Under the pieces are notes generated by a model. That model did not search any database, had not been told where the DNA came from, and saw only the letters and a list, made by a program, of their open reading frames with translations. Shown here in pieces: positions 3,971-47,446 of a DNA stretch of 64,000 nucleotides. The first letter of the stretch is position 1; each line of letters opens with the position of its first letter. The stretch comes from an uncultured Rivularia sp. (GTDB lineage: Bacteria; Cyanobacteriota; Cyanobacteriia; Cyanobacteriales; Nostocaceae), in NCBI GenBank assembly GCA_963665115.1, contig OY762007.1:4960001-5024000 (forward strand), read 5' to 3'. Made by a program: the position numbers and the translations under genes.

Positions 3971-4630
3971 TTATTTCTCAAACAAATTCCCTTCATTTCG
4001 ACGACGATTAATTAAGCCTGGTAATTTTTTCCCACTACCATGAACCCAACGATTTAATTCGCTTGGTACGGCTTTGTAATCTTGATTATTTAATTTAGCT
4101 AATAATGTCGATGATGCAAATTGGGTTTCTCCAATATTAAATACAAAACTCACAAGGGCATCAAACTGATTTTGATTTAGCGGTACTTTGACTAATCTAT
4201 TAACTGTGTTTTCGGCTGTAATTACATCAGAGCGTAAGATTTCCATTGCTCGTTCTTTTGTAATCCCACTTTTAAATTCTTCCGGTTCGCTACCATTTAT
4301 CGGGCCATAATGTACCAAATGACCAACACCAATTGTTGCATGATTAGCTGGGTCATTATATAAATGTAAAATCATTCCTTCGTGTTCGGCGATAAATTTT
4401 AAACCATTATTACCAATTTTTTTATTATCGGAATTAGCTTGAATATTCGTATTTTCTAGCGGTAAAGAAACAATTTGACCAATTTGTAACCGTCGCGCTT
4501 CGTTTTCTGTAAAGCATTCTCCCGTGTCTTTAGTTATCTCCTGCCAACGGTTAGCGCTGCCTAGGTGAAGTTGTGCGATCGCGCTTAGGGTGTCACCAGA
4601 TTTGATCGTGTAAGAAGTACGATTTTTCAT
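3971..4630 (-). CDS. LysM-domain GH24 (phage-type) lysozyme
   Basis: N-terminal YTIKSGDTLSAIA LysM; HEG..LHLYND....ATIGVGH (E-x8-D-x5-T triad), QNQFDALVSFVFNIG, LPGLINRR..E. Confidence 0.9.
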   Translation of the reverse strand: MKNRTSYTIKSGDTLSAIAQLHLGSANRWQEITKDTGECFTENEARRLQIGQIVSLPLENTNIQANSDNKKIGNNGLKFIAEHEGMILHLYNDPANHATIGVGHLVHYGPINGSEPEEFKSGITKERAMEILRSDVITAENTVNRLVKVPLNQNQFDALVSFVFNIGETQFASSTLLAKLNNQDYKAVPSELNRWVHGSGKKLPGLINRRRNEGNLFEK

Positions 4631-6440: not shown

Positions 6441-7114
6441 GATATTAATTATTCCCTGGATTTAATTGGTTTAGTGACATGAACTAAGTTAAAATGATCA
6501 ATTCAAAATTGCAGCAATTCAGCTACTAATTTCTCGATTCACTGATATACTTGTTTATTAAAAATGAAAAGTTACTTAGGCAATGTGGATGAAATGTAAC
6601 CTATTTATACAAAATATTTATGAAAAGCGTGCTAAATTACTTAATAAGATAAAAGTCTAACAAGGTTAATTCAACGCTATAATGTATAATTTCAGGATTC
6701 AATTGACACAACCAGTAAGTTAAGAATTTCTACTTAGCTCAAGTTATTTCAATAGTGACAACTAAAAATTATCTTTTCTTTATTCATAGTTTAAAAGTTA
6801 GTTGTTATTAAGTTAACAAAAAAATAATACTCCTTAAGAGACATGGGCATATATCTATGGGCGTATATATTTCGTAGTAGAAAAAATATTACAGGTTTTG
6901 AATAGCAATAGATTTTATATGTATCAAATATAATCTTACTAATTAAATAATTTTGGGTTGACTCATAGCATTAATACAGCGACTTAAATAAAGAATTCTA
7001 TATTTTGAATTTGTTTCATACATAAAATTTAAAATGTAGGAATTTTTAATCCAAAATCGATTCGGCTTCCCTTTACGCTAAAGTAATTTGTGAAGCGTGC
7101 ATCGAGGAAAAGCC

Positions 7115-8110
7115 ATGAAAGCAGTGTTAATCACAGCACCCGGAAACCCAGAAGTTTTACAAGTACGGGAAATTGCAAACCCGCTTCCTCCCCAAAATAC
7201 AGAGCTTTTGGTACGTTTAAAAGCTGCTGGAGTTAACCCCATCGATACCAAACTTCGCAAACGCGGTACCTTTTACCCAGATAAAATGCCTGCAATTTTA
7301 GGATGCGATGGTGCAGGAATTGTGGAAGCAATAGGAAATTCGGTAAAACGTTTTCGCGTAGGAGATGAAGTATATTTTTGCAACGGTGGAATAGGCGATC
7401 GCCAAGGTAATTACGCAGAGTTCACAACTGTTGAAGAGCGCTTCGTAGCTGCGAAACCGAAATCAGTCTCCTTTATAGAAGCTGCTGCTGCACCTTTAGT
7501 ATTAATTACCGCATGGGAAGCATTATACGAACGGGGACGTTTAGAACCCGGTGAAAAAGTATTAATTCATGCTGGTGCGGGTGGTGTTGGACACGTTGCA
7601 ATTCAACTAGCTAAACTAAAGGATGCTGATGTTTGTACTACGGTAAGTTCTCAGGAAAAAGTGGATTTTGTCAAGAACCTGGGGGCTGATTATGCGATTA
7701 ATTACCAGCAAAATGATTTTGTCAAAGCAGCTTTGGATTGGACAAATGGTGAAGGTGTAGATTTAGCATTCGATACAGTTGGTGGAGAGACATTTGAGAA
7801 AACATTTCCAGCGATACGAATTTACGGCGATATTGTCACCATTTTACAACCAAGCGACGCAACCAATTGGAAGGTTGCCAGACAAAGGAATTTAAGAATC
7901 GGTTTGGAATTGATGTTAACACCGATGTTGCAGGGAATGGTGGAAGCACAAGCCCATCATGGAGAGATTTTATCAGAATGTGCGAAGTGGATGGATCAAG
8001 GAAAGTTGAAAGTTTGTGTGAATAGGACTTTTGGCTTGGAAGAAGTTGCGAAAGCGCATGAATTGTTGGAAGCAGGTTCGATGATTGGGAAGGTTGTGGT
8101 TGTTAATTAG
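7115..8110 (+). CDS. MDR-family NADPH:quinone oxidoreductase / Zn-type alcohol dehydrogenase-like
   Basis: AAGVNPID.K.R, ILGCDGAG.V, VLIHAGAGGVGHVAIQLAK, C-terminal GKVV. Confidence 0.9.
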   Translation: MKAVLITAPGNPEVLQVREIANPLPPQNTELLVRLKAAGVNPIDTKLRKRGTFYPDKMPAILGCDGAGIVEAIGNSVKRFRVGDEVYFCNGGIGDRQGNYAEFTTVEERFVAAKPKSVSFIEAAAAPLVLITAWEALYERGRLEPGEKVLIHAGAGGVGHVAIQLAKLKDADVCTTVSSQEKVDFVKNLGADYAINYQQNDFVKAALDWTNGEGVDLAFDTVGGETFEKTFPAIRIYGDIVTILQPSDATNWKVARQRNLRIGLELMLTPMLQGMVEAQAHHGEILSECAKWMDQGKLKVCVNRTFGLEEVAKAHELLEAGSMIGKVVVVN

Positions 8111-8147: not shown

Positions 8148-8390
8148 CTGGCGATTGAATATGCTGCACCTATTGGTGAACGCGGCTACACAGGCAAAGT
8201 CCACCTTCGTGGACTAAATATTTAATGTTTATTGTAGGGTGTGTTATGGCGACGAAATGGTTGTAGGGAAACAGATATGTTAGTTAATGCCGTAACGCAC
8301 CGTCTTGTTTTAGCGAAGTAATCTTTTAATTTTACTAGGGCGTTAAAGTCCTGGCTACACAGGCAAATTTCATCTGTGTGGGCTGAAAAT
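8148..8390. repeat. Cluster of dispersed palindromic repeats at the left edge of the retron island
   Basis: GGCTACACAGGCAAAGTCCACCTTCGTGGACTAAA (8184) recurs degenerate at 8354 and ~60040 and inverted at ~60675-60707; GTAGGGTGTGTTA...TAACGCACC (8234-8301) recurs near 54442-54508 and 60244-60306. Confidence 0.75.
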
Positions 8391-8417
8391 TCTATCGATT
8401 TAATTCGCTACGAGCGA

Positions 8418-8461
8418 ACTAAATTCACAATATTCCAAATTTATGGTATATTGAATTTAGT
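8418..8461 (+). promoter_or_regulatory. Extended -10 promoter overlapped by a palindromic operator (retron promoter)
   Basis: TG-n-TATATT at 8444-8452; perfect 10-bp inverted repeat ACTAAATTCA (8418-8427) / TGAATTTAGT (8452-8461). Confidence 0.55.
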
Positions 8462-8462
8462 C

Positions 8463-9076
8463 GGATAAAAGGAGATGTTTGCCATTTACTGGATTGCTTC
8501 GGCATTCCGTGGAAGATAGTTATATATCTTCTATCGTGTTTCTAATTTATCTATTTGAGAAACGTGTAATTCACGCGGGTTGCCACACTAGAGACTACTT
8601 AAAGACTCCAGGAAAGAAACCTCAATGAAATTATCATTGCACGATTCCTAGAAATGTTTAGTAAACATAGAACTGTAATTATTTCCCCTATGAGTACGTT
8701 GTTCTAGGTTACTAACTAAACTAAATTAGGAAAATGAATATGAATAGAAAACACTCAAGCGCAGCTTTAGCAAATTAGCTGCGTAGGTATGGGGAGGGTT
8801 AAAACTGCTGTTCTCCTGGTTTGTTTGAGGCAACACTTATTTGTGGAAACTTGAATAAGTGCAAACAAAACATATGCATGAGGTTTTTATGCAAGAAAAA
8901 TCCGATAAACAGCAGCAGCAATCGAAAAAGCGTAAATCAAAACGGTGGCTGAAATGGCTCCGTCAACCTCAAACGCTCCGTCTACTGTTACAACTTGGTA
9001 CAATCATTTTTAATATCTTAAAATGGTTGGTCGAACGTTCACATGGTTGATATAGATTGCTTACCTCCTTTTATCT
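8463..9076 (+). ncRNA. Putative retron msr-msd / hybrid RNA enclosing a small ORF
   Basis: Terminal arms GATAAAAGGAG (8464-8474) and CTCCTTTTATC (9065-9075) are exact reverse complements. Internal hairpins at 8491-8508 (cUUCGg loop), 8510-8533, 8538-8563, 8623-8639, 8647-8708, 8760-8783 and 8820-8869. Lies directly upstream of the HTH and retron RT genes. Confidence 0.75.
8889..9050 (+). CDS. Small basic/amphipathic protein (53 aa), candidate retron effector
   Basis: GAGG RBS at 8880-8883, ATG at 8889; MQEKSDKQQQQSKKRKSKRWLKWLRQPQTLRLLLQLGTIIFNILKWLVERSHG has a basic patch followed by a hydrophobic helix. Confidence 0.65.
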   Translation: MQEKSDKQQQQSKKRKSKRWLKWLRQPQTLRLLLQLGTIIFNILKWLVERSHG

Positions 9077-9116
9077 ATAAAACTCCTTAATATCCTCTGT
9101 TCAAAGGAGGTTAACA

Positions 9117-9425
9117 ATGTTAAATGAGGCTCTAAGATTAATTAGAGTATTCTACGATTTACCACAGAAGCAACTTGCAGAGAAATTAGGAATATCTAAA
9201 TCATATCTTTCAGAAATTGAGTCGGGAAAAAAGACTCCTACAATTGATTTGCTAAATCGTTACGCAGATTTTTTCGATATCCCAGCATCCTCAATTATGT
9301 TCTTTTCAGAAAGCTTAGAAAAGGATGCAAAAGTAGAAAAACTGAGAAGTTTTGTATCTTCTAAAATTATAGCTATTCTTAACTTTATTGCTGAAAGGTC
9401 TGGTAATTCTTATGCCGAAAAATAA
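9117..9425 (+). CDS. XRE/Cro-C1 helix-turn-helix protein (retron accessory)
   Basis: Strong AAAGGAGG RBS; LRLIR...LPQKQLAEKLGISKSYLSEIESGKKTPT HTH; overlaps the RT start by 14 nt. Confidence 0.9.
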   Translation: MLNEALRLIRVFYDLPQKQLAEKLGISKSYLSEIESGKKTPTIDLLNRYADFFDIPASSIMFFSESLEKDAKVEKLRSFVSSKIIAILNFIAERSGNSYAEK

Positions 9426-10311
9426 GCATACAATATATGAATTAGATCAATCACCTTTTTACTGTTTGAAGTCTAAAGCGAAACTCGAAAAGCTTTTACT
9501 TATAACTAAAAGCAAACTTCAAATGCTTACTAAATCAGAAGATTTGTATCGCGAGAGTAATATTTATGGAAAAAATGGTAAACCTCGTCCCGTACAAAAA
9601 CCAAGACCTGATTTAAAAAGAGTTCAAAAGCGAATTGAAGAGCTTTTAAAACGAATAAAGCTTCCAAGTTATATATATGCTCCTGCGAGGGGGCTTTCCC
9701 ATATTAATAATGCTCAAGCTCATATAAATGCTGTAGTCCTAAGAACGCTTGATATTGAAAAATACTTTCCTTCTACACCATCAAGGCACGTTTATTCATT
9801 CTTCCACAAACGGATGAAATGTTCTCCAGATGTTGCTGGAATTTTAAATAAGATATTAACATTCAAAGGTTATTTACCAACTGGCAGTCCATCAAGTCCA
9901 ATTATTTCCTATTTTTCACATATTGATATGTGGGAATCAATATACGAAATTGTGAATCAAGCTAATTGTAATTTAGCTGTTTACATGGACGATGTAACTA
10001 TTTCAGGTGATGTTGTTCCTGACAAATTGATTTGGCAAATAAAGCAGCAGTTTTATAGCTGTGGATTGCGTAGTAATAAACAGAAAGAAAAATTTTACGT
10101 TGGCAAAAAGTCATCTGAAGTAACTGGAATCATTATCAAAGAAGGTAAGTTAAAGATTCCTAATCGTATACATTGGAAAATGTATAAGATTCGTCTAACT
10201 CTTCATTCAGAAACTCAGCCAAACAAACGTAAGAAGCTGATGCAACAATTGGAAAGTTTAAAGGCATATGAGCGACAAATTCTAATATCAAACTCTGCTT
10301 CATTAAATTGA
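9412..10311 (+). CDS. Retron-type reverse transcriptase (299 aa)
   Basis: NAQAH (retron region X NAxxH), LDIEKYFPS, LPTGSPSSP, catalytic YMDD, VTG (region Y); no intron maturase or endonuclease extension. Confidence 0.92.
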   Translation: MPKNKHTIYELDQSPFYCLKSKAKLEKLLLITKSKLQMLTKSEDLYRESNIYGKNGKPRPVQKPRPDLKRVQKRIEELLKRIKLPSYIYAPARGLSHINNAQAHINAVVLRTLDIEKYFPSTPSRHVYSFFHKRMKCSPDVAGILNKILTFKGYLPTGSPSSPIISYFSHIDMWESIYEIVNQANCNLAVYMDDVTISGDVVPDKLIWQIKQQFYSCGLRSNKQKEKFYVGKKSSEVTGIIIKEGKLKIPNRIHWKMYKIRLTLHSETQPNKRKKLMQQLESLKAYERQILISNSASLN

Positions 10312-10364
10312 ATGTTCAACAGCGGTATTATCTGCATTAAATTAACAAAATAAAAGGATAAAAA

Positions 10365-10592
10365 ATGAACACTTCTATCATTGACGAAGTAATTGAACAA
10401 CTCGGAACCATGCCGCAGCACTTACAATCGCAAGTACTAGATTTTGCTCGTAAACTTGTACAAAACGAAGTTAAAGGTACTCCTGGTTCGCAATTACTGC
10501 GTTTTGCAGGTTCTATTCCTGCTAATGACGTTAAATTAATGAGGGAAGCGATTGAACAAGACTGCGAACAGGTAGATGTCAATAAGTGGTAG
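10365..10592 (+). CDS. Putative VapB-type antitoxin
   Basis: 75 aa, P...Q.QVLDFA..L...GTPG..LLRFAG.I...D...M..AIE pattern; overlaps a PIN toxin gene. Confidence 0.7.
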   Translation: MNTSIIDEVIEQLGTMPQHLQSQVLDFARKLVQNEVKGTPGSQLLRFAGSIPANDVKLMREAIEQDCEQVDVNKW

Positions 10593-10971
10593 GTTCTTGC
10601 TAGATACAAACATTATCATTGCTCTCTTTGCAGATGAAGAAGCAGTTAAAAATAAGCTTGCTCAAGCCAACGAAGTTTTTATTCCAAGCAATGCTATTGG
10701 TGAATTGTGTTACGGTGCTAGAAAATCGGGGCGAGTTCAGGCAAATCTAGCAAGAGTTGATGAATTGATTGCGAACAGTGCAGTGCTTGAATGTGATGCT
10801 GAAACTGCTCGGCAATACGGTGAAGTCAAAAACCAGTTAAGGTTAAAAGGTCGTCCGTTACCTGAGAATGACATTTGGATTGCAGCCGTTGCCTTACAGC
10901 ATAATTTAGTTTTGGTAACACGCGATGCTCATTTTCAGCAAGTTGAGAATTTGCAATCTGTCAATTGGTAA
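10576..10971 (+). CDS. vapC: VapC-family PIN domain toxin
   Basis: LLDTNIII, GEL..GA, P.NDIWIAA.ALQH.L.LVTRD.HF. Confidence 0.9.
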   Translation: MSISGRFLLDTNIIIALFADEEAVKNKLAQANEVFIPSNAIGELCYGARKSGRVQANLARVDELIANSAVLECDAETARQYGEVKNQLRLKGRPLPENDIWIAAVALQHNLVLVTRDAHFQQVENLQSVNW

Positions 10972-11189: not shown

Positions 11190-11783
11190 TTGAAACTAAT
11201 TTTAGTTGCCCCCGAATCATTATTAACAGCAGCTTTTCAACAACATTTCAATTATTTCCCTAACATCGAAATTGTTAACAACTACTTTGAATGGTTGCCT
11301 GTTTTCGATTGTTTAGTTAGCCCTGCAAATTCGTTTGGGATGATGGATGGTGGTATGGATGCAGCCATTATCAAGTTTTTTGGAGATTCCTTGATGGAAA
11401 AGGTGCAGCAGCGCATCCTTACAGATTATTTAGGAGAGCAACCTGTAGGAACATCAATGATTGTAGAAACAGGTAATCGTAAACATCCATTTCTCGCACA
11501 TACACCTACCATGCGGGTTCCCATGTCTATCGTAGGGACGGATGTTCCTTATGTAGCGATGTGGGCTATGCTTTTAGCAGTGCGTCGTCACAACCAATCT
11601 TCTCAGCATAAAATTAACACCGTTGCTTGTCCCGGTTTGGGTACGGGAATCGGTAGAATTGATTACGATGAAGCAGCCAGACAAATGGCTTTAGCTTACG
11701 ATAATTTTCTTTATCCCCCGAAGCATCTTAATTGTTTTGTTGCAGCTTCCAGACAACTTTTGATTTGGGAAGGTAATGGGTAA
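11190..11783 (+). CDS. Macrodomain (ADP-ribose binding/hydrolase) protein
   Basis: VSPANSFGMMDGGMDAAI, HTPTMRVP, PGLGTGIG macro motifs; TTG start. Confidence 0.85.
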   Translation: MKLILVAPESLLTAAFQQHFNYFPNIEIVNNYFEWLPVFDCLVSPANSFGMMDGGMDAAIIKFFGDSLMEKVQQRILTDYLGEQPVGTSMIVETGNRKHPFLAHTPTMRVPMSIVGTDVPYVAMWAMLLAVRRHNQSSQHKINTVACPGLGTGIGRIDYDEAARQMALAYDNFLYPPKHLNCFVAASRQLLIWEGNG

Positions 11784-11820
11784 TTGGTAATAGTAAATGT
11801 TCCTACCCCAATATTTTTTT
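11731..11820 (+). repeat. Direct repeat copy 1 (3' end of macrodomain gene)
   Basis: 11731-11774 matches 12621-12664 at 42/44 nt; similarity continues through AATGTTCCTACCCC. Confidence 0.9.
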
Positions 11821-11868
11821 GTTTGGGAAGGTGGTAATTAGTAATTTGTGGGAACATTTAATGATGCG

Positions 11869-12213
11869 TTATGGTTCTAACAATTTCTCCATCAGCGTAT
11901 AAATATCGTTTTTATCACCTTCTTTCCGTAAACCTATTCCTACTACTAAAACTATTATTTTCTCAAGTTCAACTTTGTAAATAATTCTGTAGCGTTGACC
12001 TACTGCTCTAAGACTGCGATAACCTAAAAGATAATCGACTAAAGCTTTACCTTGAAGAAGTGGATCTGTTTTTAACTTATTTATGCGTTGGCTCAAGCCT
12101 TTTCGATGACGCTTATCTTTAATACCGCTTAACATTTCTAATGCTAGCGGTGTCAGTTGAATTTCATACTCGGTATTAGCGGGCTGATTTGTATCTGAGT
12201 CCAACTTATTCAA
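11869..12213 (-). CDS. RelE/ParE-family toxin
   Basis: YEIQLTPLA...I..LK.DP...GK.L...L.GYRSLR....RYRIIYKV....I.V.V..IG.R. Confidence 0.85.
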   Translation of the reverse strand: MNKLDSDTNQPANTEYEIQLTPLALEMLSGIKDKRHRKGLSQRINKLKTDPLLQGKALVDYLLGYRSLRAVGQRYRIIYKVELEKIIVLVVGIGLRKEGDKNDIYTLMEKLLEP

Positions 12214-12245
12214 ACTTCCCTAAAATTCAAGCACCTTACAATTAG

Positions 12246-12269
12246 AAATGTACATTAAAGTGTACATTT
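12246..12269. promoter_or_regulatory. TGTACA palindromic operator-like site
   Basis: AAATGTACA-N6-TGTACATTT; related GTAC-core array at 12589-12615 upstream of the antitoxin. Confidence 0.45.
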
Positions 12270-12311
12270 GTAGAAGCAGTATGGGAAAGTCCAAAAATAT
12301 ACTTACTAGAT

Positions 12312-12578
12312 TTATTCAAGTCCAAGTTTAGCTTTTGCTTCCTCCCAAGTTATAGTTTCTCCTCTTTGAGCCTGCTGAATACTTTCTTGCAACTGTTTGC
12401 TGAATTTTTTATCGGAAAGAATAGCTAAAGTTTCCATCATAGATTCAAATTTTTCAAAGCTAAGTGCTGCCATTACTGGCTTACCATGCTTAGTAATAAT
12501 TACTGCATCGTCTTTCAACTCATCGGGCAAATTTAATAACTGCTGTCTAGCTTCTGTAATAGTTAGATACTTAGGCAT
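12312..12578 (-). CDS. Phd/YefM-family antitoxin
   Basis: LTITEAR..L..L......VIITKHGKPV....S.E.FES..ETL.IL. Confidence 0.9.
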   Translation of the reverse strand: MPKYLTITEARQQLLNLPDELKDDAVIITKHGKPVMAALSFEKFESMMETLAILSDKKFSKQLQESIQQAQRGETITWEEAKAKLGLE

Positions 12579-45859: not shown

Positions 45860-46837
45860 GTGCTTCCCTTCCACCTCATCCCCCATACAACAGCAAAAAA
45901 CAACAATTTAACCGAAGTATATCAAAGCGATCGCGGTATTCTTTACCAAGGAGACTGCTTAAATTTTTTATCTTCTATTCCTGATGAAAGCATAGATATT
46001 GTATTTGCCGATCCACCTTTCAATCTTGGTAAAAATTATGGCAAAGGTGTAAGCGATAATTTAAAAGATAATGAATATCTTACATGGTCAAAAAATTGGC
46101 TGAATGAAAGCGTTCGTGTACTAAAACCAGGAGGAAGTTTATTCGTTTTTAATTTACCTAAATGGTGCATTGAATATGGTGCATATCTCAATCAAAAAGG
46201 TATGCTTTTTCGTCATTGGATTGCTTGTAGAATGCCGAAAGCTTTTCCTAGAGGTAAGCGAATGTCTCCTGCTCATTATGGTTTAATTTATTATACAAAA
46301 GGAGAACCGGCAGTTTTTAATAAAGTTTATACACCAATACAACTTTGCCGACATTGTAGCGGTGAAATTCGGGATTATGGAGGACATCGTAAGAAATTAA
46401 ATCCCAAAGGTATTAACTTAATGGATGTTTGGGATGCTCCTGAAGAAATTTGGGAAGATGCTTCTGCTGTTGATAATACGGAGCAAACCTGGACTCAACT
46501 TGAGGAAGTATGGAGCGATATTCCCCCAGTACGTCACCGTAAACATAAAAAAAGAGGAGCCAATGAATTAGCTCCAATTATGTTAGAGCGTATTATTGCA
46601 ATGGCATCAAATCCAGGACAAATTATAATCGATCCTTTCGGGGGTTCTGGTACTACATTTTATGCCGCTCAAAAGCTGCAACGTTATTGGTTAGGTACGG
46701 AAATTGGTGATACTTCGGGAGCAGTTCAAAGATTAAATGATTTGAAGAATGGTAAGTTTGAAGAATGGGAATCCGCAAGAGGTAAAAAAAATAATAAAAT
46801 TCAAACAGATTCTCGACAATTAGATTTATTCTCTTAA
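45860..46837 (+). CDS. Beta-class amino-DNA methyltransferase (M.BamHI-like)
   Basis: FADPPFNLGK catalytic motif precedes DPFGGSGTT SAM motif; convergent with a BamHI-like nuclease. Confidence 0.88.
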   Translation: MLPFHLIPHTTAKNNNLTEVYQSDRGILYQGDCLNFLSSIPDESIDIVFADPPFNLGKNYGKGVSDNLKDNEYLTWSKNWLNESVRVLKPGGSLFVFNLPKWCIEYGAYLNQKGMLFRHWIACRMPKAFPRGKRMSPAHYGLIYYTKGEPAVFNKVYTPIQLCRHCSGEIRDYGGHRKKLNPKGINLMDVWDAPEEIWEDASAVDNTEQTWTQLEEVWSDIPPVRHRKHKKRGANELAPIMLERIIAMASNPGQIIIDPFGGSGTTFYAAQKLQRYWLGTEIGDTSGAVQRLNDLKNGKFEEWESARGKKNNKIQTDSRQLDLFS

Positions 46838-46852
46838 GAAAATAAGTATATC

Positions 46853-47446
46853 TTAAATCAAAGCACGACCATCTGTTCCTTTAGTAATTGTTGGTACATT
46901 ACTATCTATTGCATCATGCTCTACAACAAATACTTCTAAGAATCCTTGTTCGAGATTAACAGCCCGCCAAACATCAAAGTAAGGTTCTAATTCCTCATAA
47001 TTACCAATTCGATCGGTAAGGTAAGCATAAAGTTTTCTACTAGGAAGCACCAAAGCTGAACCTAAAAAGACTCCTCTTAAAAGTCCTAAAACCATTTTAT
47101 TCACAGCGCGGTGACTGGAGGAAATATTCCCAGTTTCCCATTCAAGAGCAAAAAAATCACCATTCAACCTTTTGGTTGCATCTACTCTTCCAGGTGAACG
47201 AGTAGCATAGGTAATTTTAGTTTCTAGTTCCCAACCAAAATTTTCTTGAAGAGCAGCCATACAAGCATTTTTAATCGGTTTAACACCGTTACCATGTCGT
47301 GCAGGATTAATCGTAAAGCTTGATGTACCAACCGGGTAAACAATCAAATCAATAGCGCTGCGGATTTCGCTTTGAATAACAGACCATTCTTGAGACTTTT
47401 CAAAGTCACCACGACTAATTAGCGATACCTCTTTTATGATTTTCAA
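46853..47446 (-). CDS. BamHI-family type II restriction endonuclease
   Basis: NGVKPIK, ALEWETGNISSSHRAVNKM, YLTDRIGNYEEL.PYF, KGTDG resemble BamHI. Confidence 0.85.
   Translation of the reverse strand: MKIIKEVSLISRGDFEKSQEWSVIQSEIRSAIDLIVYPVGTSSFTINPARHGNGVKPIKNACMAALQENFGWELETKITYATRSPGRVDATKRLNGDFFALEWETGNISSSHRAVNKMVLGLLRGVFLGSALVLPSRKLYAYLTDRIGNYEELEPYFDVWRAVNLEQGFLEVFVVEHDAIDSNVPTITKGTDGRALI

Follow-up and report, generated by a model that had tools for sequence, protein, structure and literature searches.

What kind of element lies between positions 8404 and 10311 of the DNA stretch studied here, and how would it be switched on? We analysed a 64,000-nt window from an uncultured Rivularia sp. 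(OY762007.1, 4,960,001–5,024,000 of the forward strand; coordinates below are positions in this window) and found there a type VI retron with no breaks, comprising a structured leader, a small protein (SP), a helix-turn-helix (HTH) protein, and a reverse transcriptase (RT). We regard its membership in the type VI family as close to certain; the locus is thus a further member of an already known kind of retron, whose presence is what the family would lead one to expect. The three genes are as follows.

8889..9050, + strand: SP, 53 aa, a predicted toxin
9117..9425, + strand: Cro/C1-type HTH protein, 102 aa (PADLOC HTH_VI, E = 2e-36)
9412..10311, + strand: retron RT, 299 aa (ATG at 9412, stop at 10311; assigned by PADLOC model RT_VI, motifs, and tree)

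The RT matched PADLOC model RT_VI at E = 9.7e-91 (301.9 bits), followed by RT_III-A (149 bits), RT_V (99.2 bits), and RT_IV (73.9 bits), and matched Pfam RVT_1 at E = 2.6e-13. Because the best PADLOC matches are retron RT models, a non-retron RT class was ruled out. An initial annotation, made by a model from the letters alone, had described an RT with retron motifs that overlaps an XRE-HTH gene and follows a 53-aa open reading frame (ORF), and the sequence bears this out: 9412–10311 runs without a break and encodes NAQAH (an NAxxH motif; 9709–9723), YMDD (9982–9993), and VTG (10120–10128), the HTH gene overlaps the RT start by 14 nt, and the ORF extends from the ATG at 8889 to the stop at 9050. 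We take NAxxH and VTG to be the motifs named regions X and Y in retron RTs. The type VI assignment made there also holds, with RT_VI and HTH_VI as best models and the RT nesting among HTH–RT loci in our tree. As worded in PMC7736814, type VI comprises this RT group, part of clade 3, with a Cro/C1 HTH of 91–110 aa that precedes or overlaps the RT and often a small protein ahead of the HTH; here the HTH falls inside that range, overlaps the RT, and has the 53-aa ORF upstream. The locus sequence is identical in contigs of two runs, X1 (8189–10394) and X3 (8189–10700), which possibly represent the source sample itself.

The RT tree contains 53 rows, after removal of loci in which the RT was broken, cut, or missed by our script. 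Its 16 cyanobacterial rows form one clade (100/96) that adjoins alphaproteobacterial plasmid RTs (joint group 97/90), and ten loci with SPs of ~80 aa form a separate clade (100/99). We claim no donor, because the tree includes no named reference RT and its root is the midpoint. In viral contigs, the RTs of the window and of locus L156 had no match, and the RT of L160 had near-identical copies only, which were left unused.

The SP has a net charge of +10, amphipathic helices with a moment of up to 0.81, and a hydrophobic stretch from residue 30. Of the 17 cyanobacterial loci aligned, 16 keep its reading frame whole and one (L062) has a premature stop. It had no PADLOC match and no Pfam match over the cut-off, and no named SP cluster could be assigned. 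SPs of the same basic-then-amphipathic make-up precede the HTH in alpha- and gammaproteobacterial loci (L027 and L028; Maricaulis and a gammaproteobacterium); the SP is therefore not a private, cyanobacteria-specific effector, and the idea that the locus has an effector of its own finds no support as a claim of uniqueness. The expectation that automated annotation would show only an RT and an HTH fits PADLOC, which models both and has no model for the SP, but the SP does appear as a hypothetical protein in a Scytonema plasmid record.

How might such an SP be controlled? In Retron-Vpa2, as presented in the main text of its preprint (10.1101/2025.10.22.683967), a hybrid RNA of ~470 nt is both the template and the message for a toxic SP, and phage-induced multicopy single-stranded DNA (msDNA) turns on SP translation. 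This RNA has three arms and a 3′ end that wraps back, a ~23-nt hairpin at the msDNA's 5′ end is required for SP translation, and two direct repeats lie in an msd loop and a riboregulator loop. In Retron-Sen3, according to the main text of 10.64898/2026.04.27.721009, a 79-aa SP is held post-translationally by the HTH, and the trigger is inhibition of RecBCD. These sources describe RT- and SP-dependent phage defence as demonstrated for Vpa2, Eco12, and Sen3, so that by family an anti-phage function is likely for the Rivularia locus, and the toxicity of its SP is predicted by analogy with Vpa2 and Sen3. The statement in the initial annotation that characterised type VI examples are proteobacterial agrees with both preprints. 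The string 'cyano' is absent from the main text of either, and literature searches, judged by titles and the start of abstracts, listed no work on type VI retrons of cyanobacteria, although supplements of the preprints might tabulate such loci.

The RNA of the Rivularia locus is better read as continuing through the small ORF to ~9098 than as ending before the SP. Its predicted elements, including inverted repeats (IR1 and IR2) and the ribosome-binding site (RBS) of the SP, are these.

8459..9098, + strand: predicted hybrid RNA (hyRNA), ~640 nt, msr-msd plus SP message (from the alignment fold; ends inferred)
8479..8483, + strand: TTGCC, an anti-repeat in the 5′ leader that is complementary to both repeats, R1 and R2
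8490..8509 and 8511..8532, + strand: two msr-like stem-loops
8533..8786, + strand: msd template as predicted, ~254 nt (limits placed by analogy with the layout of Vpa2)
8769..8773, + strand: direct repeat R1 in the loop formed by hairpin 8759–8784, reading AGCAA here and GGCAA in most relatives
8785..8800, + strand: IR1, pairing with IR2 (9062–9078) behind the SP stop codon
8805..8915, + strand: arm 2, whose outer helix (8805–8812 with SP codons 7–9, 8908–8915) encloses the SP RBS and AUG
8829..8833, + strand: direct repeat R2, GGCAA, in a single-stranded bulge of arm 2

The fold of segment 8458–9120 has an energy of −174.8 kcal/mol, which none of 20 shuffles equals (z = −5.49), and the ~430 nt of hairpin-rich non-coding DNA reported earlier agree with the 430 nt between the inferred start at 8459 and position 8888. 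We obtained a consensus structure by folding the conserved columns of 17 cyanobacterial loci. On this alignment, 93.8% of 1513 cells are paired and 38 of 91 pairs show two-sided change, a level reached by 0 of 500 shuffles, and slid controls pair at 42–48%; the structure was derived from the same sequences on which it was scored, which favours it. Constraining the window to this structure costs 2 kcal/mol. The closing helix joins 8463–8474 to 9081–9095. Within it, the stem-loops are 96–97% paired (4/8 and 3/8 pairs two-sided), and the msd consists of a variable long arm closed by 8536–8540/8750–8754 (94% paired, 4/5 pairs two-sided) followed by hairpin 8759–8784. IR1:IR2 is 85–94% paired, with 3/12 pairs two-sided and a duplex energy of −17.3 kcal/mol. 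The outer helix of arm 2, conserved across the alignment, is 99% paired, and its pair 8809:8911 changed on both sides in 6/17 loci even though 8911 is a second codon position, where changes alter the amino acid; the inner helices are 8818–8827/8862–8871 and 8834–8844/8851–8861. Arm 3 is a structure inside the SP coding region. The covarying pairs imply selection at the locus.

The predicted RNA and msDNA are 640 and 254 nt long in the window and range from 488 to 657 nt and from 98 to 262 nt, respectively, over the 17 loci, with both ends predicted. An RNA described earlier as unusually long is thus longer than that of Vpa2 but within the range of its cyanobacterial relatives. The length differences fall in the variable msd arm, whose folding z-score is −2.2 in the window and −5.5 to +0.6 over the set. 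Among database searches, no Rfam family reached its gathering score between 8000 and 10500, and the ESM Atlas gave a best value of 0.89 and no family. A switch of IR2 to the HTH RBS was considered and rejected: conservation of this pairing finds no support, and it is weaker than IR1:IR2 in 16/17 loci and equal in one.

These features place the locus most likely with the Vpa2 kind of type VI retron, the 'Large' lineage. Like Vpa2, it has the order SP-HTH-RT and a short SP (53 aa here, 55 aa in Vpa2), a structured msr-msd RNA with terminal inverted repeats that runs across the SP with its 3′ end paired back, one direct repeat in the loop of the msd hairpin and one in that of arm 2, and a hairpin of ~24 nt at the inferred msDNA 5′ end. 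The differences are a cyanobacterial host without detectable RecC or AddB, a longer RNA and predicted msDNA (~250 nt, compared with 86 nt in Vpa2), and YMDD in place of YADD. With Sen3 (cl2075) the locus shares gene order, IR1–IR2 pairing around the SP gene, and structure in the SP coding region. Sen3 differs in making ssDNA constitutively and in its surveillance of RecBCD, and toxins of its type have 75–79 aa with an N-terminal extension. Loci with SPs of ~80 aa also have another HTH helix and another palindrome. Control of the demonstrated Sen3 type (10.64898/2026.04.27.721009, main text) would mean that the SP is always made and held by HTH binding, that msDNA is constitutive, and that the RNA pairings merely scaffold the RT. 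We consider this unlikely: the strong amphipathic moment of the SP and an RBS occlusion that is not conserved in folds would suit it, but the SP is without the ~25 residues by which 79-aa cl2075 toxins are extended, the RTs with ~80-aa SPs form their own clade, the locus has the repeats of the Vpa2 model in both msd loop and bulge, and RecBCD, the trigger for Sen3, was not found in the host.

The explanation we favour, with somewhat better than even confidence for the mechanism in full, is abortive-infection defence in the manner of Retron-Vpa2, with one predicted ~640-nt RNA likely keeping a predicted toxin untranslated until msDNA induced by phage would open it. What could hold the RNA closed? 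The leader is complementary to both repeats, and leader, R1, and R2 vary together across cyanobacteria and other phyla. Leader/repeat combinations in cyanobacteria are TTGCC/GGCAA, TCGCC/GGCGA, TCCCC/GGGGA, and GTGCC/GGCAC; elsewhere they are GCCATC/GATGGC, GTCATC/GATGAC, TGCTCC/GGAGCA, GTCACC/GGTGAC, CCTCG/CGAGG, and TGTCGTC/GACGACA. The leader:R2 helix is 100% paired in A1, with one pair two-sided in four sequences. R1 is copied into msDNA, and the msDNA therefore bears the sequence of the leader. These patterns suggest a predicted lock, the leader on R2, and a predicted key, the msDNA loop that mimics the leader. The main text of the Vpa2 preprint (10.1101/2025.10.22.683967) contains neither 'pseudoknot' nor 'kissing', and where it treats the repeats it mentions no third site.

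A first automated search for repeats gave noisy output and did not pick up the window. For a blind test, we let the bulge in each fold define R2 and compared it with a leader segment of fixed position. A bulge was found in 32/40 loci, and scores of at least 13 were reached by 84% of own pairs versus 33% of cross pairs. For 25 diverse loci (22 with a bulge), the score was 313 versus 251.9 ± 10.6, with 0/20000 permutations reaching it. In a fresh test on seven loci from viral contigs, the match lay at +58 to +62 in 5/7.

The complementarity of the leader to R1 allows another reading within the Vpa2 kind, in which leader:R1 pairing positions the priming guanine at the template start, as a substitute for a1/a2, and R2 is only a target of msDNA, with no lock. 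In retrons the branching G is expected just 3′ of the closing helix; the leader sits just 3′ of that helix, and R1 is close to where the template would begin. In the window and in L032, however, R1 is AGCAA, which forms a C·A mismatch with the RNA leader, whereas leader:R2 stays perfect and a DNA copy of the window R1 could pair with R2 through one tolerated dT·rG wobble. Other loci give a mixed picture. We consider the priming alternative unlikely. Over all loci, leader:R1 has 178 Watson–Crick pairs, 13 wobbles, and 9 mismatches of 200, counts that carry selection bias and several mis-picked R1 sites, that of the window included; ranking the three pairings by wobble pattern was tried and was not decisive.

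Several results speak against the lock model and the Vpa2 assignment. The pairings cannot be ranked by their mismatches per 200 (leader:R2, 2; leader:R1, 9; msDNA:R2, 7), all counts being subject to the selection bias and mis-picked R1 sites noted above. In the blind test, 8/40 loci had no bulge, stem-loop 1 and not the leader gave the best match for the window, L025, and L026, and related loci are not independent; the fresh test was weak (93 versus 83.4 ± 5.8; 1348/20000). Occlusion of the RBS and AUG, clear in the window, is not conserved in single-sequence folds, the probability that the AUG is unpaired being 0.00 in the window and 0.00–0.71 over the 17 loci, and removing the leader changes little. 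Finally, the lineage was assigned by SP length and RNA layout, because the Vpa2 and Sen3 sequences lie outside the compared sets.

Does the HTH protein act on the same operon? Two elements precede the RNA.

8404..8418, strand not assigned: TTCGC-N5-GCGAA palindrome, a putative operator that the retron HTH would bind, picked out by its recurrence across related loci
8424..8452, + strand: predicted promoter, −35 TTCACA (8424–8429) and extended −10 TG-n-TATATT (8444–8452; TATATT 8447–8452)

The promoter matches the consensus at 10/12 positions and places the inferred transcription start near 8459. The scan that found it is at chance level overall (7 found versus 8.3 expected) and was dismissed as support by itself; we credit the promoter because a −10 box, TG/CG-n-TAnnnT, recurs at the same place in 17/17 aligned loci. 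The promoter-like site of the initial annotation is accordingly retained on the strength of its recurrence and not of the scan, and the start that it gave for the locus, 8418, cuts off the palindrome, whose 3′ edge is 5 nt ahead of the −35 box.

The palindrome is present in all 17 aligned cyanobacterial loci. Counted with one mismatch allowed and 400–800 nt upstream of the HTH, it occurs in 36/41 short-SP loci (38/41 once an ATCGC variant was added), in 0/10 long-SP loci, and in 5/214 control windows. When gapped palindromes were counted without a preset motif in 22 non-core loci, TCGC-N5 ranked first (13 loci). In a fresh set of 74 loci, from which 6 with short upstream DNA and 21 near-duplicates or loci without an HTH match were dropped, it was found in 11/15 HTH+RT loci versus 4/32 HTH-only loci. 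Across 38 loci the 5-nt spacer is fixed and 5/10 arm positions are invariant. The distance from its centre to the −10 box is 27–30 nt in 13/17 cyanobacterial loci and 36–38 nt in the other four, and 36–39 nt in 13/19 other loci (no −10 called in six), so that the two distance classes differ by about one helical turn. The strict 6-3-6 form occurs once in the 8.7-Mb host genome, G000. A role as a host-wide regulator site was rejected (3 copies in G000 versus 7.5 expected), as was a reading as an RNA hairpin or as the 5′ stem-loop of Sen3, since the palindrome has a fixed spacer and precedes the predicted promoter, long-SP loci have a hairpin of their own downstream of the −10 box, and the Sen3 stem-loop lies in the RNA with a loop of 3–14 nt. 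Locus L035 has two copies, and L272, with no RT detected behind its HTH, has two perfect palindromes in tandem, at distances of 510 and 477 nt upstream of that gene.

The HTH protein matches Pfam HTH_3 (E = 5.6e-14), and the best solved-structure match of its family profile is the restriction–modification (R-M) controller C.BclI (E = 2.2e-13). Its structure is modelled as all helical (pLDDT 82.5). The arginine of helix 1 (R10) is invariant, and R7 of the Vpa2 HTH is a candidate counterpart. Like the controllers C.BclI and C.PvuII as described in PMC2175313, the retron HTH is of XRE type, the palindrome has the same arm–spacer geometry by the −35 box of its own operon, and the operon also encodes a toxic product (here a predicted one). 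The retron palindrome differs in being mostly single, not a tandem pair, and in its sequence, TCGC-N5-GCGA, and the retron HTH also joins the RT–RNA complex. The recognition helix reads S.SYLSEIE in the short-SP lineage versus S.SY[LI]SLLE in the long-SP lineage. TTGAC-N5-GTCAA occurs in 6/10 long-SP loci, in 1/41 short-SP loci, and in 1/214 controls; GACT-N3-AGTC, contained in this motif, is the controller-protein C-box as given in PMC2175313. In the long-SP loci L166, L167, and L169–L174, TTGAC-N5-GTCAA-like palindromes lie ~630–760 nt upstream of the HTH and overlap the −35 box or sit just upstream of it. Locus L157, in Peduovirus P22H1, lacks the palindrome, and its recognition helix is degenerate, but it keeps the leader and both repeats.

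From this recurrence and pairing of helix with motif, the palindrome is likely an operator for the retron's own HTH. Set against that reading, many HTH-only loci have the same recognition helix without a palindrome, the palindrome is missing from 4/15 fresh HTH+RT loci and 3/41 earlier loci, and the ATCGC variant was added only after inspection; the left half of TTGAC-N5-GTCAA equals a −35 box, and the helix–palindrome contrast depends on one deep tree split plus L157. In PMC7736814 (Mestre 2020), a role of the HTH in transcriptional regulation is suggested. Neither type VI preprint uses the terms 'operator', 'palindrom', or 'autoregulat' in its main text, and a literature search on retron HTH operators and autoregulation gave no such paper among the matches listed.

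How would the parts work together? An HTH dimer would bind TTCGC-N5-GCGAA beside the promoter and set operon output as R-M controllers do, and would also join the RT–RNA complex. In the resting RNA, the leader TTGCC would lie on R2 in the arm-2 bulge and clamp the arm that holds the RBS and AUG. The RT would prime near G8474–G8477 and copy leftwards from ~8786 into an msDNA of ~250 nt, whose first hairpin loop would be a copy of R1 with the same sequence as the leader. On infection, msDNA would accumulate and displace the leader from R2, the SP would be translated, and this basic amphipathic protein, probably at the membrane, would halt the cell.

The trigger probably differs from that of Sen3. 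The host genome (99.93% complete) contains no match to RecC (PF04257) or AddB (TIGR02773), and RecB and AddA fall far below the cut-off; in the cyanobacterial context covered by PMC5101192, recC is reported only from marine picocyanobacteria. With no RecC or AddB found, a phage ssDNA-binding or annealing protein is a more likely trigger than RecBCD inhibition, and surveillance of RecBCD as in Sen3 is unlikely in this host. Stabilisation of msDNA by a phage annealing protein is proposed for Vpa2 in the main text of 10.1101/2025.10.22.683967. As a broader and more tentative proposal, which we put at slightly less than an even chance, type VI retrons would carry a two-layer switch, consisting of a C-protein-like HTH autoregulator whose operator differs by lineage, TCGC-N5-GCGA here and the classic C-box GACT-N3-AGTC where the SP is long, and a leader–bulge pseudoknot opened by msDNA mimicry, with a cyanobacterial clade that has msDNA of ~250 nt and a non-RecBCD trigger.

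The value of the locus lies in its two conserved elements, the leader anti-repeat and the palindrome, neither of which appears in the main text of the Vpa2 or the Sen3 preprint. The Vpa2 text does not settle through which sequence elements msDNA turns on toxin translation, or what the HTH does (10.1101/2025.10.22.683967), and the three-way covarying motif and the palindrome make both questions addressable by point mutation. If the model is true, a reverse-transcribed DNA would open an RNA lock, and the sequence of lock and key differs from locus to locus; a swappable code of 5–7 nt would therefore be a programmable part. A type VI retron in a host in which RecBCD was not found also bears on the generality of RecBCD surveillance, and the locus is a candidate defence system against cyanophages.

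How widespread is the retron, and could it be a passenger? Strong matches (E ≤ 1e-40) were found in 8/401 genomes of the order and, at the phylum level, in 11/401 genomes at E ≤ 2e-75 with RT_VI, each with an HTH upstream. A metagenome scan with the HTH contributed 3/80 loci, one of them a duplicate and one without an RT. Among 22 genomes of the genus, the slot behind the quinone oxidoreductase gene (7097–8110) holds the retron in three, leads straight to a macro-domain gene in three, and holds an ORF in six that we take from its motifs to be methyltransferase-like. Patchiness at this site, and broken copies such as L062 (SP stop), L028 (RT frameshift), and L005 (RT ending early), would suit a selfish addiction module or decaying passenger with no anti-phage role in the host. 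We consider this very unlikely: all parts are intact in the window, covariation implies selection, three type VI members defend according to the preprints (Vpa2, Eco12, Sen3), and in relatives the same site holds methyltransferase-like and toxin–antitoxin genes, as defence hotspots do, a hotspot reading that is itself inferred.

Over loci L177–L198, the slot and the DNA downstream of it hold the retron, the methyltransferase-like ORF, toxin–antitoxin remnants, other genes, or nothing. Among broken relatives, the RT of L028 lies in two frames, that of L005 is short and near a contig end, and that of L064 is short. A VapBC-type pair (10365–10971, + strand), consisting of a DUF2281-like protein (below cut-off) and a PIN-domain protein, begins 53 nt behind the RT, and such a pair also follows the L021 retron. 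The stretch 11190–12578 contains the macro-domain gene (+ strand) and a Phd/YefM antitoxin with a 114-aa partner (− strand); the partner, which has no Pfam match at 1e-8, is presumably RelE-like. Upstream, between 8110 and 8330, a short repeated intergenic element (8184–8222) has ~28 BLAST matches in G000, and a repeat element starting with GTAG (8232–8322), which we assume to be REP-like, lies behind the oxidoreductase gene in most genus relatives. Elsewhere in the window are convergent genes for an N6/N4 methyltransferase and a BamHI-family endonuclease (45860–47446) and a gene for a phage-lysozyme domain protein (3971–4630, − strand) with a presumably LysM-like N-terminal stretch and no evident prophage around it. 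In other genomes, three plasmids of alphaproteobacteria (L148, L153, and L154) carry a TIR-domain gene directly behind the type VI RT, and related ORFs of 247–254 aa follow the RT in L003, L024 (the same as L004), and L147, with part of this ORF also present behind the broken RT of L029.

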